In this document: positions 3,250 through 54,346 of the stretch, piece after piece | Numbering within the stretch: the first letter of the stretch is position 1 | Layout of the letters: each line of letters begins with the position of its first letter | NCBI RefSeq assembly: GCF_056746865.1 | Contig: NZ_CM163382.1 | Length of the DNA stretch: 64,000 bases | Strand: one strand, 5' to 3' | The notes under the pieces: generated by a model | What the model was told of the DNA's origin: nothing | What the model saw: only the letters and a program-made list of their open reading frames with translations | The model's database searches: none | Made by a program: the position numbers and the translations under genes

Positions 3250-3530
3250 CGGGTGTTGGTGGCGTCAAAATCGCCGAAGCGTTCCCTGGAGGCCGGGGCG
3301 ACGCGCATGGATGCGCGGCGAGGGCGCATCTTACAGGGACGTTCCCTTGCGCCCGACCCGGTAGCCGCAAGGGATAAGCTGAGGGAACCGCGCAGCGGCG
3401 ATTTTGTTCGCCAGAGCCTGGGGGTGCAGGGGGCGGCGGCGATTGGCCGCCCCCTGCGCGCTCCCTGCGGCATTGACTTTATATGGCATAGCACATTAAA
3501 GGAGCGCAACCGTTCTCATATTCCAAATAG
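3250..3530. repeat. GC-rich structured intergenic element with nested inverted repeats (unclassified repeat family)
   Basis: Arm gtcaaaatcgccgaagcg (about 3263-3281) pairs with cgcagcggcgattttg (about 3391-3406); separate 9-bp G/C stem gggggcggc...gccgccccc at about 3430-3455. The ORFs called here have no RBS and repeat-like composition. Confidence 0.4.
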
Positions 3531-7150: not shown

Positions 7151-8665
<1,515 letters not shown>

Positions 8666-39373: not shown

Positions 39374-40945
39374 ATGGCCAACATCGAAATCAGACAAGAA
39401 ACGCCAACTGCGTTTTATATAAAAGTTCACGACACAGATAATGTGGCAATTATTGTTAATGATAATGGCCTGAAAGCAGGAACGCGTTTTCCGGATGGGC
39501 TGGAATTAATTGAACATATTCCCCAGGGGCATAAAGTCGCATTGCTGGACATTCCGGCTAATGGTGAAATTATTCGTTATGGCGAAGTGATTGGTTACGC
39601 CGTGCGCGCAATCCCACGCGGAAGCTGGATCGACGAATCAATGGTTGTACTACCGGAAGCGCCGCCGTTACACACGCTGCCACTGGCAACCAAAGTCCCG
39701 GCCCCCTTACCGCCACTGGAAGGATACACCTTTGAGGGCTATCGCAATGCCGATGGCAGCGTGGGCACCAAAAACCTGCTCGGCATCACCACCAGCGTCC
39801 ACTGTGTGGCAGGCGTGGTGGACTATGTAGTAAAAATCATTGAACGCGATCTGCTACCGAAATACCCGAACGTCGATGGCGTGGTGGGGCTGAATCATTT
39901 GTACGGTTGTGGCGTGGCGATTAACGCACCGGCGGCAGTTGTGCCTATTCGTACCATTCACAATATTTCGCTGAACCCTAACTTTGGCGGCGAAGTAATG
40001 GTGATTGGTCTGGGTTGTGAAAAGTTGCAGCCTGAACGCCTGCTGACTGGAACGGATGATGTGCAAGCTATTCCAGTAGAAAGCGCCAGCATTGTCAGTT
40101 TGCAGGATGAAAAGCATGTCGGTTTTCAGTCCATGGTCGAGGATATTTTGCAGGTCGCCGAACGCCATTTGCACAAACTGAATCAACGGCAGCGAGAAAC
40201 CTGTCCGGCTTCAGAACTGGTTGTCGGCATGCAGTGCGGCGGTAGCGATGCGTTTTCTGGCGTAACGGCAAACCCGGCGGTTGGGTATGCGTCTGATCTA
40301 CTGGTGCGCTGCGGCGCAACGGTGATGTTTTCAGAAGTCACGGAAGTGCGTGACGCGATCCATCTGCTGACACCACGCGCAGTGAACGAAGAGGTCGGCA
40401 AACGGCTGCTGGAGGAGATGGAGTGGTACGATAACTATCTCAATATGGGAAAAACCGACCGCAGCGCCAACCCTTCGCCGGGCAACAAGAAAGGCGGTCT
40501 GGCAAACGTGGTGGAGAAAGCGCTCGGCTCCATTGCTAAATCGGGTAAAAGTGCAATTGTTGAAGTGCTGTCGCCCGGTCAACGCCCGACTAAACGCGGA
40601 TTAATTTACGCCGCGACGCCAGCCAGTGATTTTGTCTGTGGCACACAACAGGTGGCTTCAGGGATTACCGTGCAAGTGTTTACGACCGGTCGCGGTACGC
40701 CGTACGGCCTGATGGCGGTACCCGTCATTAAAATGGCGACCCGCACCGAGCTGGCGAACCGCTGGTTTGATTTAATGGATATTAATGCGGGCACCATCGC
40801 TACCGGCGAAGAAACTATTGAAGAGGTGGGCTGGAAGTTGTTCCACTTTATTCTCGACGTCGCCAGCGGGAAGAAGAAAACCTTCTCAGATCAATGGGGA
40901 CTGCATAACCAGCTGGCGGTGTTTAACCCGGCACCGGTGACCTGA
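39374..40945 (+). CDS. garD: Galactarate dehydratase GarD
   Basis: 523-aa ORF paralogous to UxaA (SAF N-domain plus dehydratase core); divergent from garP across an AT-rich control region. Confidence 0.95.
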
Positions 40946-40965
40946 TTTCTTTTGGAACGTCCCTC

Positions 40966-40996
40966 GCAAAACATGGCCTTAGTGCCATGTTTTTAT
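40966..40996 (+). terminator. Rho-independent terminator downstream of garD
   Basis: aaaacatggc-cttagt-gccatgtttt hairpin followed by T-rich sequence. Confidence 0.75.
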
Positions 40997-41093
40997 TGTT
41001 TAAAGTCCCCACGTCCATTAATAATGCATTTGCATTACCTTAGTTCAAGCTTATAATTTGAGCAGAAAACAGGCTGTAAAAGGACAGTGAATC

Positions 41094-41429
41094 ATGCCCG
41101 CTAATGCTCGCTCTCACGCTGTACTGACCACTGAATCAAAGGTCACGATACGCGGACAAACAACTATCCCCGCGCCAGTGCGTGAGGCCTTAAAACTGAA
41201 GCCAGGCCAGGACAGCATTCATTACGAAATTCTGCCTGGTGGGCAAGTATTTATGTGCCGACTGGGAGATGAACAGGAGGATCATACTATGAATGCATTT
41301 TTGCGTTTTCTGGATGCAGATATCCAGAACACCCCGCAAAAAACTCGTCCATTCAACATTCAACAAGGAAAGAAACTTGTCGCTGGCATGGACGTCAACA
41401 TTGATGATGAGATTGGCGACGACGAATAA
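41094..41429 (+). CDS. prlF: Type II antitoxin PrlF (SohA), AbrB/SpoVT-like fold
   Basis: 111-aa ORF recognised; stop overlaps the yhaV start by 1 nt. Confidence 0.92.
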   Translation: MPANARSHAVLTTESKVTIRGQTTIPAPVREALKLKPGQDSIHYEILPGGQVFMCRLGDEQEDHTMNAFLRFLDADIQNTPQKTRPFNIQQGKKLVAGMDVNIDDEIGDDE

Positions 41430-41893
41430 TGGATTTTCCACAAAGGGTTAATGGTTGGGCGCTATATGCTCATCCCTGTTTTCAGGAAACCTACGACGCT
41501 TTAGTTGCCGAAGTCGAGACATTAAAGGGAAAAGATCCTGAAAATTATCAGAGAAAAGCCGCCACAAAGTTATTGGCGGTAGTCCATAAAGTGATTGAGG
41601 AGCATATCACGGTCAATCCATCATCACCGGCATTCCGTCATGGCAAGTCGTTAGGCTCTGGGAAAAATAAAGACTGGTCACGGGTAAAATTTGGTGCTGG
41701 TCGTTATCGTCTCTTCTTTCGTTATAGTGAAAAAGAGAAAGTCATCATTCTGGGATGGATGAACGATGAAAACACTCTGCGCACCTACGGTAAAAAAACA
41801 GATGCTTATACCGTATTCAGCAAAATGTTAAAAAGAGGACATCCTCCTGCCGACTGGGAAACCCTCACCCGAGAGGCAGAAGAAACCCATTGA
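41429..41893 (+). CDS. yhaV: Type II toxin YhaV (ribosome-dependent mRNA endonuclease)
   Basis: 154-aa ORF recognised; translationally coupled to prlF. Confidence 0.92.
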   Translation: MDFPQRVNGWALYAHPCFQETYDALVAEVETLKGKDPENYQRKAATKLLAVVHKVIEEHITVNPSSPAFRHGKSLGSGKNKDWSRVKFGAGRYRLFFRYSEKEKVIILGWMNDENTLRTYGKKTDAYTVFSKMLKRGHPPADWETLTREAEETH

Positions 41894-41947
41894 TGGTGTT
41901 CACAATGCCCGCCGAACGCATTCGTGTTGACCAGCGGGCACCCTTTC

Positions 41948-42757
41948 TCACTCCCCGACCAGAATCACTTCAACCCCAGCCTTTCGCAGGCCTTCCAGAC
42001 TATCCGCAGGAATGCCTTCATCAACAATGATCATGTCGATACGTTGAGTATCAATGATCTTATGTAAACTGGAACGATTGAACTTACTGGAATCGGTGAC
42101 CACGATGATCCGTTCCGCAACTTCGCACATCCGGCGGTTTAAACGGGCTTCATCTTCATTATGCGTACTGACGCCGCGCTCCAGATCGATCGCATCTACG
42201 CCAAGAAACAGCATATCGAAGTGGTAATTTTGCAGCGATTGTTCAGCCTGATCGCCGTAAAAAGATTGCGACTGACGGCGCAAATGCCCGCCGGTCATCA
42301 GCAGCTCAACGCCTTCCGCTTCCAGCAACGCATTAGCCACGTTCATACCGTTGGTCATCGCAATTACGTCAGTGTGCTTGCGCATCAGACGAGCAATCTC
42401 AAAAGTGGTGGTCCCGGAATCGAGGATCACCCGATGACCTGGCTGAATCAACTCAACGGCAGCTTTCGCAACGCTGCGTTTCATCGCGGTGTTCAGCGCG
42501 CTTTTATCTTCCACTGATGGCTCGACTGACGGCGTGGTGCTATCGCAGATCAACGCGCCGCCATAGGCACGCACAGCGATCCCCTGCTTTTCCAGAAACG
42601 CCAGATCGTTGCGGATCGTCACAGTAGATACGCCATACAATGCCGACAGATCGTTAACCTGCACACTCCCTTGCTGTCGCAGACGCTGAATGATCTGTTC
42701 TCGTCGCTCGCTGGTGCCTGTCATTCGCTTCTCACCTGAAGCGTCGGTATTACTCAT
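41948..42757 (-). CDS. agaR: DeoR-family repressor AgaR of the aga/kba cluster
   Basis: 269-aa ORF with N-terminal HTH and DeoR C-terminal sugar-phosphate-binding domain. Confidence 0.93.
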
Positions 42758-52665: not shown

Positions 52666-53433
52666 ATGGAACGAGGCACCGCGTCTGGCGGTGCCTCTTT
52701 ACTTAAGGAATTTCATCCTGTGCAAACCCTTCAACAAGTTGAAAACTATACGGCGTTAAGTGAACGTGCCAGCGAATATTTATTGGCCGTGATCCGTAGC
52801 AAACCGGATGCCGTGATTTGCCTGGCGACCGGAGCCACGCCATTACTGACGTATCATTATCTGGTAGAAAAAATCCACCAGCAGCAGGTTGATGTCAGCC
52901 AGCTCACCTTCGTGAAGCTCGACGAATGGGTGGATCTGCCATTAACGATGCCTGGCACCTGCGAAACTTTCCTGCAACAGCATATCGTGCAGCCGCTGGG
53001 GCTACGTGAAGACCAACTCATCAGCTTTCGCTCCGAAGAGATAAATGAGACAGAGTGCGAACGGGTAACGAACCTGATTGCGCGCAAAGGCGGTCTGGAT
53101 TTATGCGTTCTCGGATTGGGGAAAAACGGTCATCTTGGGCTGAACGAACCGGGAGAAAACCTGCAACCGGCCTGCCATATCAGTCAACTTGATGCCAGAA
53201 CACAGCAACATGAGATGTTAAAAACCGCGGGCCGTCCTGTGACTCGTGGGATCACCTTAGGCCTGAAGGATATTCTCAATGCCCGCGAAGTTTTGTTACT
53301 GGTGACTGGCGAAGGAAAGCAGGATGCGACAGAACGTTTTCTCACGGCTAAAGTCTCTACCGCTATCCCGGCTTCATTTTTATGGCTGCATAACCATTTC
53401 ACATGCGTGATTGATGAAATGTGTCGTCGTTAA
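52666..53433 (+). CDS. agaI: Putative galactosamine-6-phosphate deaminase/isomerase AgaI (NagB-like)
   Basis: ORF recognised; start uncertain (ATG at 52666 without RBS, or GTG at 52720 with AAGGAA RBS); a hairpin aggcaccgc...gcggtgcct lies at 52673-52697. Confidence 0.85.
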   Translation: MERGTASGGASLLKEFHPVQTLQQVENYTALSERASEYLLAVIRSKPDAVICLATGATPLLTYHYLVEKIHQQQVDVSQLTFVKLDEWVDLPLTMPGTCETFLQQHIVQPLGLREDQLISFRSEEINETECERVTNLIARKGGLDLCVLGLGKNGHLGLNEPGENLQPACHISQLDARTQQHEMLKTAGRPVTRGITLGLKDILNAREVLLLVTGEGKQDATERFLTAKVSTAIPASFLWLHNHFTCVIDEMCRR

Positions 53434-53482
53434 CTCGCCAGGTAAAGGCGTTGTAGCGCTATTCCTGCTGCGACGCCTGTAA

Positions 53483-54346
53483 TCACTCTCCCTGCTGCTC
53501 CAGCGCATACTTATACAGCGCATTTTTCTTCACGCCGTGAATTTCTGCGGCCAGCGCCGCCGCTTTTTTCAGCGGCAGTTCTGCCTGTAGCAGCGCCAGC
53601 GTGCGCAGGGCATCAGCAGGCAGGTCATCTTCCTGCGCTTTATGGCCTTCGACAATCAGTACCATTTCGCCTTTGCGACGGTTTTCATCTTCTTTGACCC
53701 ACGCCAGCAGCTCGCCAACGGGCGCGCCGTGAATGGTTTCCCAGGTTTTGGTTAGCTCACGCGCCAGAACCACGTAGCGGGATTCGCCTAATACCGCAAC
53801 GATATCTTCCAGGCTATCTAACAGACGGTGGGTAGATTCATAAAAAATCAGCGTGCGCGGCTCCGCTTCAATGGCTTTTAGCGCATCACGGCGGCCTTTT
53901 GATTTGGCAGGTAAAAAGCCTTCATAACAAAAACGATCGGATGGTAAACCCGCGGCGCTTAACGCAGTGATAGCAGCACACGGCCCGGGTAGCGGCACCA
54001 CGCGAATCCCCGCTTCACGGCAGGTACGCACCAGATGGTAGCCAGGATCGTTAATTAGCGGCGTTCCGGCATCGGAAACCAGCGCAATGTTTTGCCCCTC
54101 TTGCAGCTTCGCCAGCAGCGTTTCGGCTTTTTGTTGTTCGTTATGGTCGTGCAGCGCAAACAACCGAGCATTAATCCCAAAATGTTGCAGCAATAAACCG
54201 GTGTGACGCGTATCCTCGGCGGCAATCAGATCAACGGCCTGTAATACCTCCAACGCACGCTGGGTGATATCCGCCAGATTGCCGATTGGCGTCGGTACAA
54301 TGTAAAGCTGGCCCTGAGAATTATCCGCCGATTGGTGTTGTTTCAT
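53483..54346 (-). CDS. rsmI: 16S rRNA (cytidine1402-2'-O)-methyltransferase RsmI (YraL)
   Basis: 287-aa ORF recognised (tetrapyrrole-methylase fold, [14 protein letters not shown]). Confidence 0.92.

Follow-up and report, generated by a model that had tools for sequence, protein, structure and literature searches.

The prlF-yhaV toxin-antitoxin operon between garD and agaR of Escherichia coli as a probable recombination-spread insertion

The prlF-yhaV pair, which separates garD from agaR in Escherichia coli, raises the question of how a toxin-antitoxin operon came to lie between the gar and aga catabolic genes and whether it does anything for them. The reading that best explains the data, to which we give a probability of roughly 85%, is a joint one: the pair in the window (the whole 64,000-nucleotide stretch of DNA that was analysed) would be a type II toxin-antitoxin operon, orthologous to K-12 b3129-b3130, that sits on a derived insertion spread by recombination, and it would be a passenger with no aga role. 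For annotation the impact of this answer is small, as prlF-yhaV is a textbook locus and its absence from ST95 and ST12 has already been published. The comparison does bear on the debated question of whether toxin-antitoxin loci on chromosomes benefit the host or are selfish passengers, in a way that will not surprise specialists.

The operon, its products and its control signals

The antitoxin gene prlF, also named sohA (41094-41429, plus strand), encodes a protein of 111 aa and is followed by the toxin gene yhaV (41429-41893, plus strand), which encodes one of 154 aa. The stop codon TAA of prlF (41427-41429) and the start codon ATG of yhaV (41429-41431) share one nucleotide in the string TAATG. 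The left flank, outside the module, is garD, the galactarate dehydratase gene (39374-40945, plus strand; TIGR03248, 940 bits), and the right flank is agaR (41948-42757, minus strand; NF007316/NF040755), whose 269-aa product ends in VGE. The stop codons of the two flanking genes are 1,002 bp apart, and the first-pass annotation, which had described a pair with a 1-nt TAATG overlap in a garD-agaR slot of about 1 kb, is exact in its coordinates. The antitoxin gene lies 5' of the toxin gene in a single operon with overlapping stop and start codons, as is characteristic of type II toxin-antitoxin loci.

Judged by their protein families, the two genes are prlF and yhaV, with matches far beyond chance. 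PrlF matches PrlF_antitoxin (PF15937) with E = 2.4e-41 and 140.3 bits (cut-off 32) and the NCBIfam equivalog NF007429 with 167.9 bits (cut-off 125), and YhaV matches Toxin_YhaV (PF11663) with E = 5.9e-54 and 182.3 bits (cut-off 35), covering 137 of the 138 profile positions. E. coli 118UI (NZ_CP032515.1) matches the window at 100% identity, and RefSeq names its four genes prlF, yhaV, garD and agaR. Strain 118UI originated from urine in Mexico City. The locus is the well-known E. coli prlF-yhaV pair at its usual site, and as such it was already known. K-12 carries the same genes (b3129-b3130) in the same order, with the same 1-nt overlap, garD-agaR slot, promoter and palindrome. The 1,005-bp segment that holds the pair in the window is 99.4% identical to that of K-12 (DH5a), in the same position and with the same garD and agaR flanks, and the few point differences leave one amino-acid change in each protein. 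The two strains also differ next door, where the aga cluster is complete in the window strain and incomplete in K-12. Whatever function is ascribed to the window pair rests on orthology to b3129-b3130.

In the literature on K-12, YhaV is a ribosome-dependent mRNA endonuclease of the RelE clade that favours G after the cut (PMC8546651), and it is classed as one of seven ribosome-dependent toxins with a BECR fold (RelE/ParE type) in that strain (PMC11980606). Its toxicity can be rescued by the antitoxin, according to PMC8546651 and to Schmidt et al. (2007, J Mol Biol 372:894) as cited there; the K-12 system is further referenced in that work, again through PMC8546651, and in Choi et al. (2017, FEBS Lett 591:1853). 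By extension, the window toxin would be a RelE/ParE-fold endoribonuclease that cuts mRNA in the ribosomal A site with a preference for G just downstream, would be bound and neutralised by PrlF, and the PrlF-YhaV complex would repress the promoter of its own operon, all three steps being those described for K-12. A fourth step is proposed here: the palindrome TAATGCAttTGCATTA (41022-41037), lying over the -35 hexamer, probably serves as the operator.

The AlphaFold2 model of YhaV (pLDDT 90.2, pTM 0.86) has a RelE-like predicted fold, in which helices pack against an antiparallel sheet. Its best Foldseek matches in the PDB are PfiT (9w3a, E = 1.4e-4), RelE (9g12, 4fxh and 4fxe) and HigB2, with target-normalised TM-scores of 0.6-0.79 against the PDB toxins and Foldseek probabilities of up to 1.00. 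Because phmmer and a 22-sequence profile found no toxin in the PDB that is similar to YhaV in sequence, the kinship with RelE and ParE is visible at the level of the fold only; sequence and profile searches of the PDB also returned no solved structure of YhaV or PrlF. RelE, HigB and PfiT share the fold predicted for YhaV, the protein for which ribosome-dependent mRNA cleavage has been reported (PMC8546651, PMC11980606). YhaV is, however, longer than these toxins, with 154 aa against about 85-110, and its model displays an extra N-terminal pair of strands and long helices. Its partner antitoxin is putatively of the AbrB/MazE type, unlike RelB or HigA. The N-terminus of PrlF resembles AbrB/MazE DNA-binding domains, with residues 15-39 matching PF04014 at 19.5 bits (cut-off 24.7) and TIGR01439 at 27.1 bits (cut-off 28.3), both below threshold, and its C-terminal tail is acidic (DDEIGDDE). 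Neither protein matches any defence model of PADLOC-DB 2.0 at E ≤ 0.01.

Upstream of prlF, a promoter scan located a sigma-70-like promoter at 41029-41057 on the plus strand (TTTGCA and TATAAT separated by 17 nt, with 10 of 12 matches), and a possible ribosome-binding site, AAGGA, was read from the sequence at 41080-41084. The palindrome, an inverted repeat of TAATGCA and TGCATTA around tt, overlaps the predicted -35 hexamer. Its core AATGCAnTTGCA is invariant 5' of prlF in all seven loci that were aligned, which represent four kinds of context (E. coli, E. albertii, two Pseudocitrobacter loci, two ssb-adjacent loci and a Salmonella phage-like contig) and whose surrounding sequences are barely alignable. 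This conservation fits the autoregulatory operator expected of a type II toxin-antitoxin operon.

Two further inverted repeats frame the pair. The first, called by the terminator scan and also found by the inverted-repeat search, is the hairpin AAAACATGGC-cttagt-GCCATGTTTT (40968-40993, plus strand) between garD and prlF, with a perfect 10-bp stem followed by a T run; in E. coli it looks like an ordinary terminator. Pseudocitrobacter has a close counterpart of it, one copy on each side of the cassette. The possibility that the hairpin is a dispersed repeat of the REP or MITE kind was discarded, since it was found solely at this cassette when the window and all 109 loci were searched, and its resemblance to a Xer/dif site, judged by eye, was too weak to claim. 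The second inverted repeat, TGCCCGC and GCGGGCA separated by 21 nt (41906-41940; 7-bp arms, from the inverted-repeat search), lies between yhaV and agaR and may serve as a terminator for both converging genes; the terminator scan made no call on it.

Comparison of E. coli with Pseudocitrobacter gave pN/pS values of 0.18 for prlF and 0.11 for yhaV, which points to long-term purifying selection on both genes. In some lineages the toxin gene is, judging from its reading frame, decaying: strain MIN14 has two nonsense codons in yhaV together with an intact prlF, and near-identical relatives of the window strain have one additional A in the A7 homopolymer at 41792-41798 (plus strand), which leads to a frameshifted YhaV of 200 aa without the invariant C-terminal residues.

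Occupied and empty forms of the garD-agaR interval

The pair, at 80% coverage or more, is present in 5,136 of the 5,426 complete E. coli genomes (94.7%), and the full garD-to-agaR interval in 5,119 of them. Earlier work reported YhaV in at least 60% of the isolates of every ST surveyed, except ST95 and ST12 (2% each; PMC10790755), and a conserved prlF-yhaV synteny in K-12, HS, CFT073 and NRG857c, with absence from HM605 (PMC7232551). In E. coli the pair is near-core but variable, and this variability is real and already published (PMC10790755). At the empty site of NU14, a stretch of 51 bp with a single hairpin separates the garD stop codon from that of agaR. The NU14 junction recurs at 100% identity in UTI89, S88, APEC O1, IHE3034, UM146, APEC O18, the type strain ATCC 11775 and O4:H5 isolates, most of which we take to belong to the ST95 complex. 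The true empty site is estimated to occur in about 187 E. coli genomes of the ST95 type; this number, obtained by subtracting 451 divergent second copies on pathogenicity islands from 638 full-coverage records, is bracketed only, and the ranking of the spread is consistent with it.

The interval was also compared across species, by a GarD scan of one genome per species that yielded 80 loci, in which PrlF, YhaV and AgaR were placed by tblastn; junctions were tabulated for 23 loci. E. fergusonii, E. marmotae and E. ruysiae lay outside this sample. Within the scan, prlF-yhaV lies between garD and agaR only in E. coli and E. albertii, and Pseudocitrobacter L010 has the pair downstream of garD and no agaR on its far side. 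In 21 other Enterobacteriaceae species, which include E. whittamii, Citrobacter, Kluyvera, Enterobacter, Klebsiella indica, Salmonella enterica subsp. arizonae, Phytobacter, Trabulsiella and Pluralibacter, garD and agaR converge directly on a spacer of 36-250 bp, and most of these spacers contain one obvious inverted repeat. The first-pass annotation had regarded the pair as an inserted module of accessory type and had suggested a comparison of the garD-agaR interval across relatives. That comparison found the pair variably present, and universal presence with uniform flanks was not seen. The proposal of an insertion is borne out by the empty sites, which occur in E. whittamii, in 20 further species and in roughly 187 E. 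coli genomes of the ST95 type, but within E. coli the module is near-core.

The junctions indicate what the insertion replaced. Three empty alleles of Escherichia, those of E. whittamii, ST95 and a pathogenicity-island fragment, have a homologous hairpin in common, ATGCCCGATA...TATCGGGCAT; the pathogenicity-island copy is a fossil fragment that spans garD'-agaR and has about 91% identity with the native locus. AgaR has 274 aa and ends in VG(E/D)(H/L)ASSL in the empty Escherichia alleles, against 269 aa and an end in VGE in the occupied ones. Since the empty spacer and the HASSL tail are common to all three copies, the empty allele is old. When the occupied allele is aligned with the empty one of NU14, homology ends right after the garD stop codon and resumes at AgaR codon 269. 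Furthermore, no significant similarity to the empty spacer was found anywhere in the 1,005-bp segment when it was compared with shuffled sequence. The break in homology at these two points, together with a spacer that is unlike the cassette, identifies 40946-41950 (plus strand) as an insertion-replacement, which is missing from the empty-site alleles both in the NU14 alignment and in the table of 23 junctions. The segment took the place of about 70-80 bp, consisting of the ancestral spacer of 51-62 bp and of the last five AgaR codons with the stop codon (18 bp), and it provides the current agaR stop codon (41948-41950).

Other explanations of the junctions fared poorly. Reading 41894-41950 as a remnant of the ancestral hairpin, combined with a separate 15-bp deletion of HASSL, was rejected because the local alignment to the three empty spacers was no better than 58-116 of 500 shuffles. 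A 14-nt direct repeat (GGAAGAAGAAAACC / GGCAGAAGAAACCC), with copies 1,006 bp apart, was considered as the end points of a deletion; it lies about 63 bp inside garD, and it is treated as a chance occurrence because this position conflicts with the observed junctions.

The course of events would be as follows. In the ancestral Enterobacteriaceae layout, a single short spacer with a hairpin lay between the convergent garD and agaR. The segment 40946-41950 would, in Escherichia, have displaced this spacer and the last five codons of agaR, supplying a new garD terminator and a new agaR stop codon, and recombination would then have carried it into about 95% of E. coli and, beyond that species, into E. 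albertii, with the older empty allele persisting in the ST95-type B2 lineages and in E. whittamii. The hairpin at 40968-40993 is, on the sequence, what now acts as the garD terminator, and it would have arrived with the insert and not have been part of the older garD unit. This corrects the earlier statement that each neighbour has a terminator or regulator of its own, as the ancestral layout has one shared hairpin and the current garD terminator came with the insert. What this comparison adds to the published variability is an account of the insertion at the level of single bases, including the sequence that was replaced, the loss of five AgaR residues and the new terminator of garD.

The opposite polarity, in which prlF-yhaV belongs to the ancestral core of Escherichia and was deleted from ST95, ST12 and E. 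whittamii with no insertion at all, is in our view quite improbable. It would readily explain why the pair occurs in 94.7% of E. coli and also in E. albertii, an early-branching Escherichia; however, the cassettes of these two species are 5-30 times less diverged at synonymous sites than the flanks, which excludes vertical inheritance since the E. coli/E. albertii split. The 26-33-bp direct repeats around the Pseudocitrobacter cassette could mediate a precise excision, but nothing in the cassette is significantly similar to the empty spacer of Escherichia, which is therefore not a deletion scar and which is common to lineages that differ by about 9% (E. whittamii, ST95 and the pathogenicity-island copy). 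Likewise, the Pseudocitrobacter cassette occupies the same slot with a divergence like that of the flanks (74-77% identity for the cassette, 75% for agaR and 83% for garD), whereas Citrobacter, Salmonella arizonae, Kluyvera, Enterobacter and others have, as a rule, an empty slot. The last point in favour of an ancestral pair is the occupied AgaR, whose 269 aa are typical of the family. As the 274-aa form is specific to Escherichia, this length hints that the cassette arrived with the agaR end of a donor, and it does not fit quite so well with a junction on the right that is purely illegitimate.

Exchange between species and the means of movement

The insertion with subsequent recombination that we favour is most visible in E. 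albertii. Between the window and this species, DNA identity is 88.9% in garD and 88.8% in agaR, and 97.3% in the left spacer, 98.2% in prlF, 97.0% in yhaV and 96.3% in the right spacer. The corresponding pS values are 0.41 for garD and 0.43 for agaR, against 0.013 for prlF and 0.096 for yhaV. Because the cassette is far more similar than the genes on either side, the species boundary was crossed recently, long after the split of E. coli and E. albertii. The E. albertii cassette falls within the diversity of the E. coli cassettes (96.2-99.9%) and has its nearest relatives (98.8-98.9%) in GPEC1352 and 20AR0479, two B2-like strains; cassettes with flanks of the E. albertii type were found in at least two, and probably three, E. 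albertii strains. At the left edge, the E. coli-like tract extends about 100 bp into the E. albertii garD (2 mismatches in the last 100 bp, versus 10-16 per 100 bp elsewhere), and on the agaR side divergence returns within 7 bp of the boundary. Within B2, alignment of the occupied allele of GPEC1352 with the empty one of NU14 gives 3 mismatches over 1,800 bp on the left side of the boundary and 41 over 1,900 bp on the right side, a contrast that marks a recombination breakpoint at the cassette. The general point that these data add is that a toxin-antitoxin pair on the chromosome, bound to a single slot, crossed species boundaries far later than its neighbours diverged.

The nearest cassette outside Escherichia is that of Pseudocitrobacter (L010 and L094-L096; P. 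corydidari protein P0164), with 74-77% DNA identity to that of E. coli, and no closer donor was found. It occupies the same slot after garD, and in the Pseudocitrobacter-like L094 the order is garD-prlF-yhaV-agaR; the right flank is agaR in L094 and a pfkB-type kinase gene in L010. As with E. albertii, the cassette is more similar between these two genomes (about 98%, pS 0.06-0.07) than garD is (91.6%, pS 0.33). Its left spacer is homologous to that of E. coli, the hairpin being nearly the same and the operator exactly so, and the homology between the two is unbroken from garD into the left spacer, suggesting that the cassette arrived by recombination anchored in garD. Unlike E. coli, Pseudocitrobacter has a second copy of the hairpin after yhaV, so that perfect-hairpin copies of 26-33 bp flank the cassette on both sides as direct repeats, 939-940 bp apart; the C-terminus of YhaV and the right-hand junction differ as well. 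Such direct repeats around the cassette were seen only in Pseudocitrobacter, and the E. coli segment retains the left copy only. This hairpin-flanked version is a further addition to what was known of the locus. The 73-aa proteins of E. coli and E. albertii that were grouped with the Pseudocitrobacter YhaV (P0163 and P0166) proved to be an unrelated small ORF upstream of ftsB, a clustering artefact.

Ordinary homologous recombination through garD and agaR would be the most economical account of the sharp tract edges. The edges could have been sharpened by mismatch correction of the flanking heteroduplex or by a crossover inside a resident cassette. Such an assumption is needed because the return of divergence within 7 bp on the agaR side of E. 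albertii leaves, for a simple crossover with an empty recipient, no donor tract to be seen.

The sharpness of these boundaries, seen in two independent species pairs, might instead reflect a discrete non-autonomous mobile unit, moved as a block by a recombinase that is supplied from outside and recognises the hairpin ends. Movement of this kind would account for the sharing of the cassette between species without its flanks. The Pseudocitrobacter repeats, which bracket the cassette beside a right flank that differs between species, speak for this; the right end of the E. coli cassette, however, has no hairpin, and the hairpin on its left is not a dispersed repeat and resembles an ordinary terminator. 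Furthermore, the 1,005 bp hold prlF and yhaV only, with no recombinase gene, and neither terminal inverted repeats nor a target-site duplication were found at 40946 and 41950. The E. coli-like tract of about 100 bp in the E. albertii garD is what homologous recombination predicts, and the homology of E. coli and Pseudocitrobacter runs from garD into the spacer with no break. Members of the family do occur beside ssb, in a phage-like context and on plasmids, but for the E. coli cassette a mobile unit of this kind has little chance of being the right description. We consider it about as doubtful that the cassette has, beyond ordinary recombination, any dedicated means of movement, either a hairpin-directed recombination provided from outside or selection that favours transfer of the pair. 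If it had, small toxin-antitoxin modules on chromosomes would have a mobility of their own and yet be kept in one slot.

The wider family was surveyed for its contexts. YhaV homologues, mostly less than 60% identical, occur in 328 plasmid records, 175 of which are conjugative. In Salmonella, contigs of about 90 kb have the homologues next to the phage genes ANT and pRha, and in another enterobacterial lineage homologues lie between ssb and a JmjC-family gene. A search of phages for the YhaV family gave one weak match only, with 45% identity.

The module and the neighbouring catabolic genes

The first-pass annotation had proposed that the pair could stabilise the adjacent aga region. The comparison bearing on this consists of a handful of genomes and is not a statistical test, but each of its cases goes against the proposal. 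UTI89 has no prlF-yhaV and a complete aga cluster of 13 genes, and the window strain has both the pair and a complete cluster. K-12 has prlF-yhaV together with truncated agaW and agaA, and it is missing agaE and agaF. In ETEC6, a single IS1-bounded deletion removed the 3' end of garD, prlF-yhaV, the whole aga cluster and part of the yra operon. As background, the joint deletion of a toxin and its antitoxin gene leaves only short-lived proteins behind, and E. coli from which many chromosomal toxin-antitoxin loci have been deleted is viable.

That the module is an addiction device which guards the gar and aga region against deletion is hardly credible: the toxin family is indeed found on the 328 plasmid records (175 conjugative), where stabilisation is its accepted role, and the neighbourhood is indeed variable (the internal aga deletion of K-12, and yraHIJK present or absent), but UTI89 and NU14 have a complete aga cluster and no module, K-12 suffered its internal deletion with the module in place, ETEC6 lost module and aga in one step and is viable, and toxin-null alleles exist beside intact flanks. 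UTI89, K-12, ETEC6 and the lineages with a broken yhaV all count against the proposed stabilisation, and they are specific examples that contradict the view of such modules as guardians of the catabolic genes next to them. The pair behaves like a small passenger, selfish or neutral, with no detectable role in the retention of aga.

The modules associated with plasmids and phages have the same two-gene architecture and operator palindrome as the pair in the window. Their YhaV is less than 70% identical, and they reside on mobile replicons or beside the phage ANT and pRha genes, where they could plausibly act as stabilisers; the copy in the window, unlike them, is chromosomal and fixed in position.

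AgaR length and a second garD-agaR junction

The AgaR protein of Escherichia occurs in two lengths, 269 and 274 aa, and these follow the state of the garD-agaR junction. Every Escherichia allele that carries the prlF-yhaV cassette encodes the 269-aa form, which ends in VGE*, whereas at the empty sites, where garD and agaR converge across a short spacer, the protein is 274 aa long and ends in VGEHASSL* or VGDHASSL*, as judged by comparing window 41948-41962 with 3398-3415 of locus L001 and 7635-7652 of locus L004. In most other genera, AgaR has the same length as the 269-aa form.

A second copy of this region is located inside a pathogenicity island of E. coli PC6 (NZ_CP080253.1; L003 10980-13621), and consists of a fossil garD' pseudogene, an agaR gene that encodes 274 aa, and fragments of kbaZ. 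The copy shares about 91% identity with the native locus, its garD'-agaR junction is of the empty type, and it is adjoined by malX, a MalY/PatB gene, an enterotoxin gene and IS3, IS66 and IS100 elements. Such an island copy of garD'-agaR appears to be present in about 450 E. coli genomes.

Damaged toxin genes and deletion of the locus

The yhaV gene contains a run of seven adenines (window 41792-41798) that is a frameshift site. Relatives of the window strain with 100% identity to the window in garD and agaR (L084, L085 and L087) have one additional A in this run, producing a YhaV of 200 aa whose C-terminus is scrambled and runs into the oppositely oriented agaR. In E. coli O7:H4 MIN14, yhaV (L092 2329-2793) carries two nonsense codons, W10* and Q41*, next to an intact prlF, which is thereby left as an orphan antitoxin.

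A larger loss was found in E. coli ETEC6, where a deletion bounded by IS1A (L002 4775-7122) has removed prlF-yhaV, the entire aga cluster and yraH-yraI, so that a truncated garD is fused to a yraJ fragment. In the window, rsmI directly follows agaI (52666-54346); the yraHIJK fimbrial operon, which separates these two genes in K-12, is absent there, as it is in UTI89.

The cassette in Pseudocitrobacter and homologues elsewhere

In Pseudocitrobacter, the prlF-yhaV cassette is flanked on both sides by direct repeats of a perfect hairpin of 26-33 bp, spaced 939-940 bp apart (L094 3538-3563 and 4477-4502; L010 7596-7628 and 8536-8568). The right flank is not the same in the two loci: agaR follows the cassette in L094, and a gene for a pfkB-type kinase does so in L010. 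Some 73-aa proteins (L101-L104 5001-5222) were considered as YhaV relatives and rejected, as they derive from a small, unrelated ORF that separates a DUF3561 gene from ftsB; their place with the Pseudocitrobacter YhaV in a 90% protein cluster is a clustering artefact of the protein collection.

Homologues of prlF-yhaV also occur outside the garD-agaR slot (L097-L099 3666-4462; L100 2119-2924; L105 3666-4459). In Salmonella they are found on contigs about 90 kb long, next to the phage genes ANT and pRha, and in another enterobacterial lineage they are flanked by ssb on one side and a JmjC-family gene on the other.
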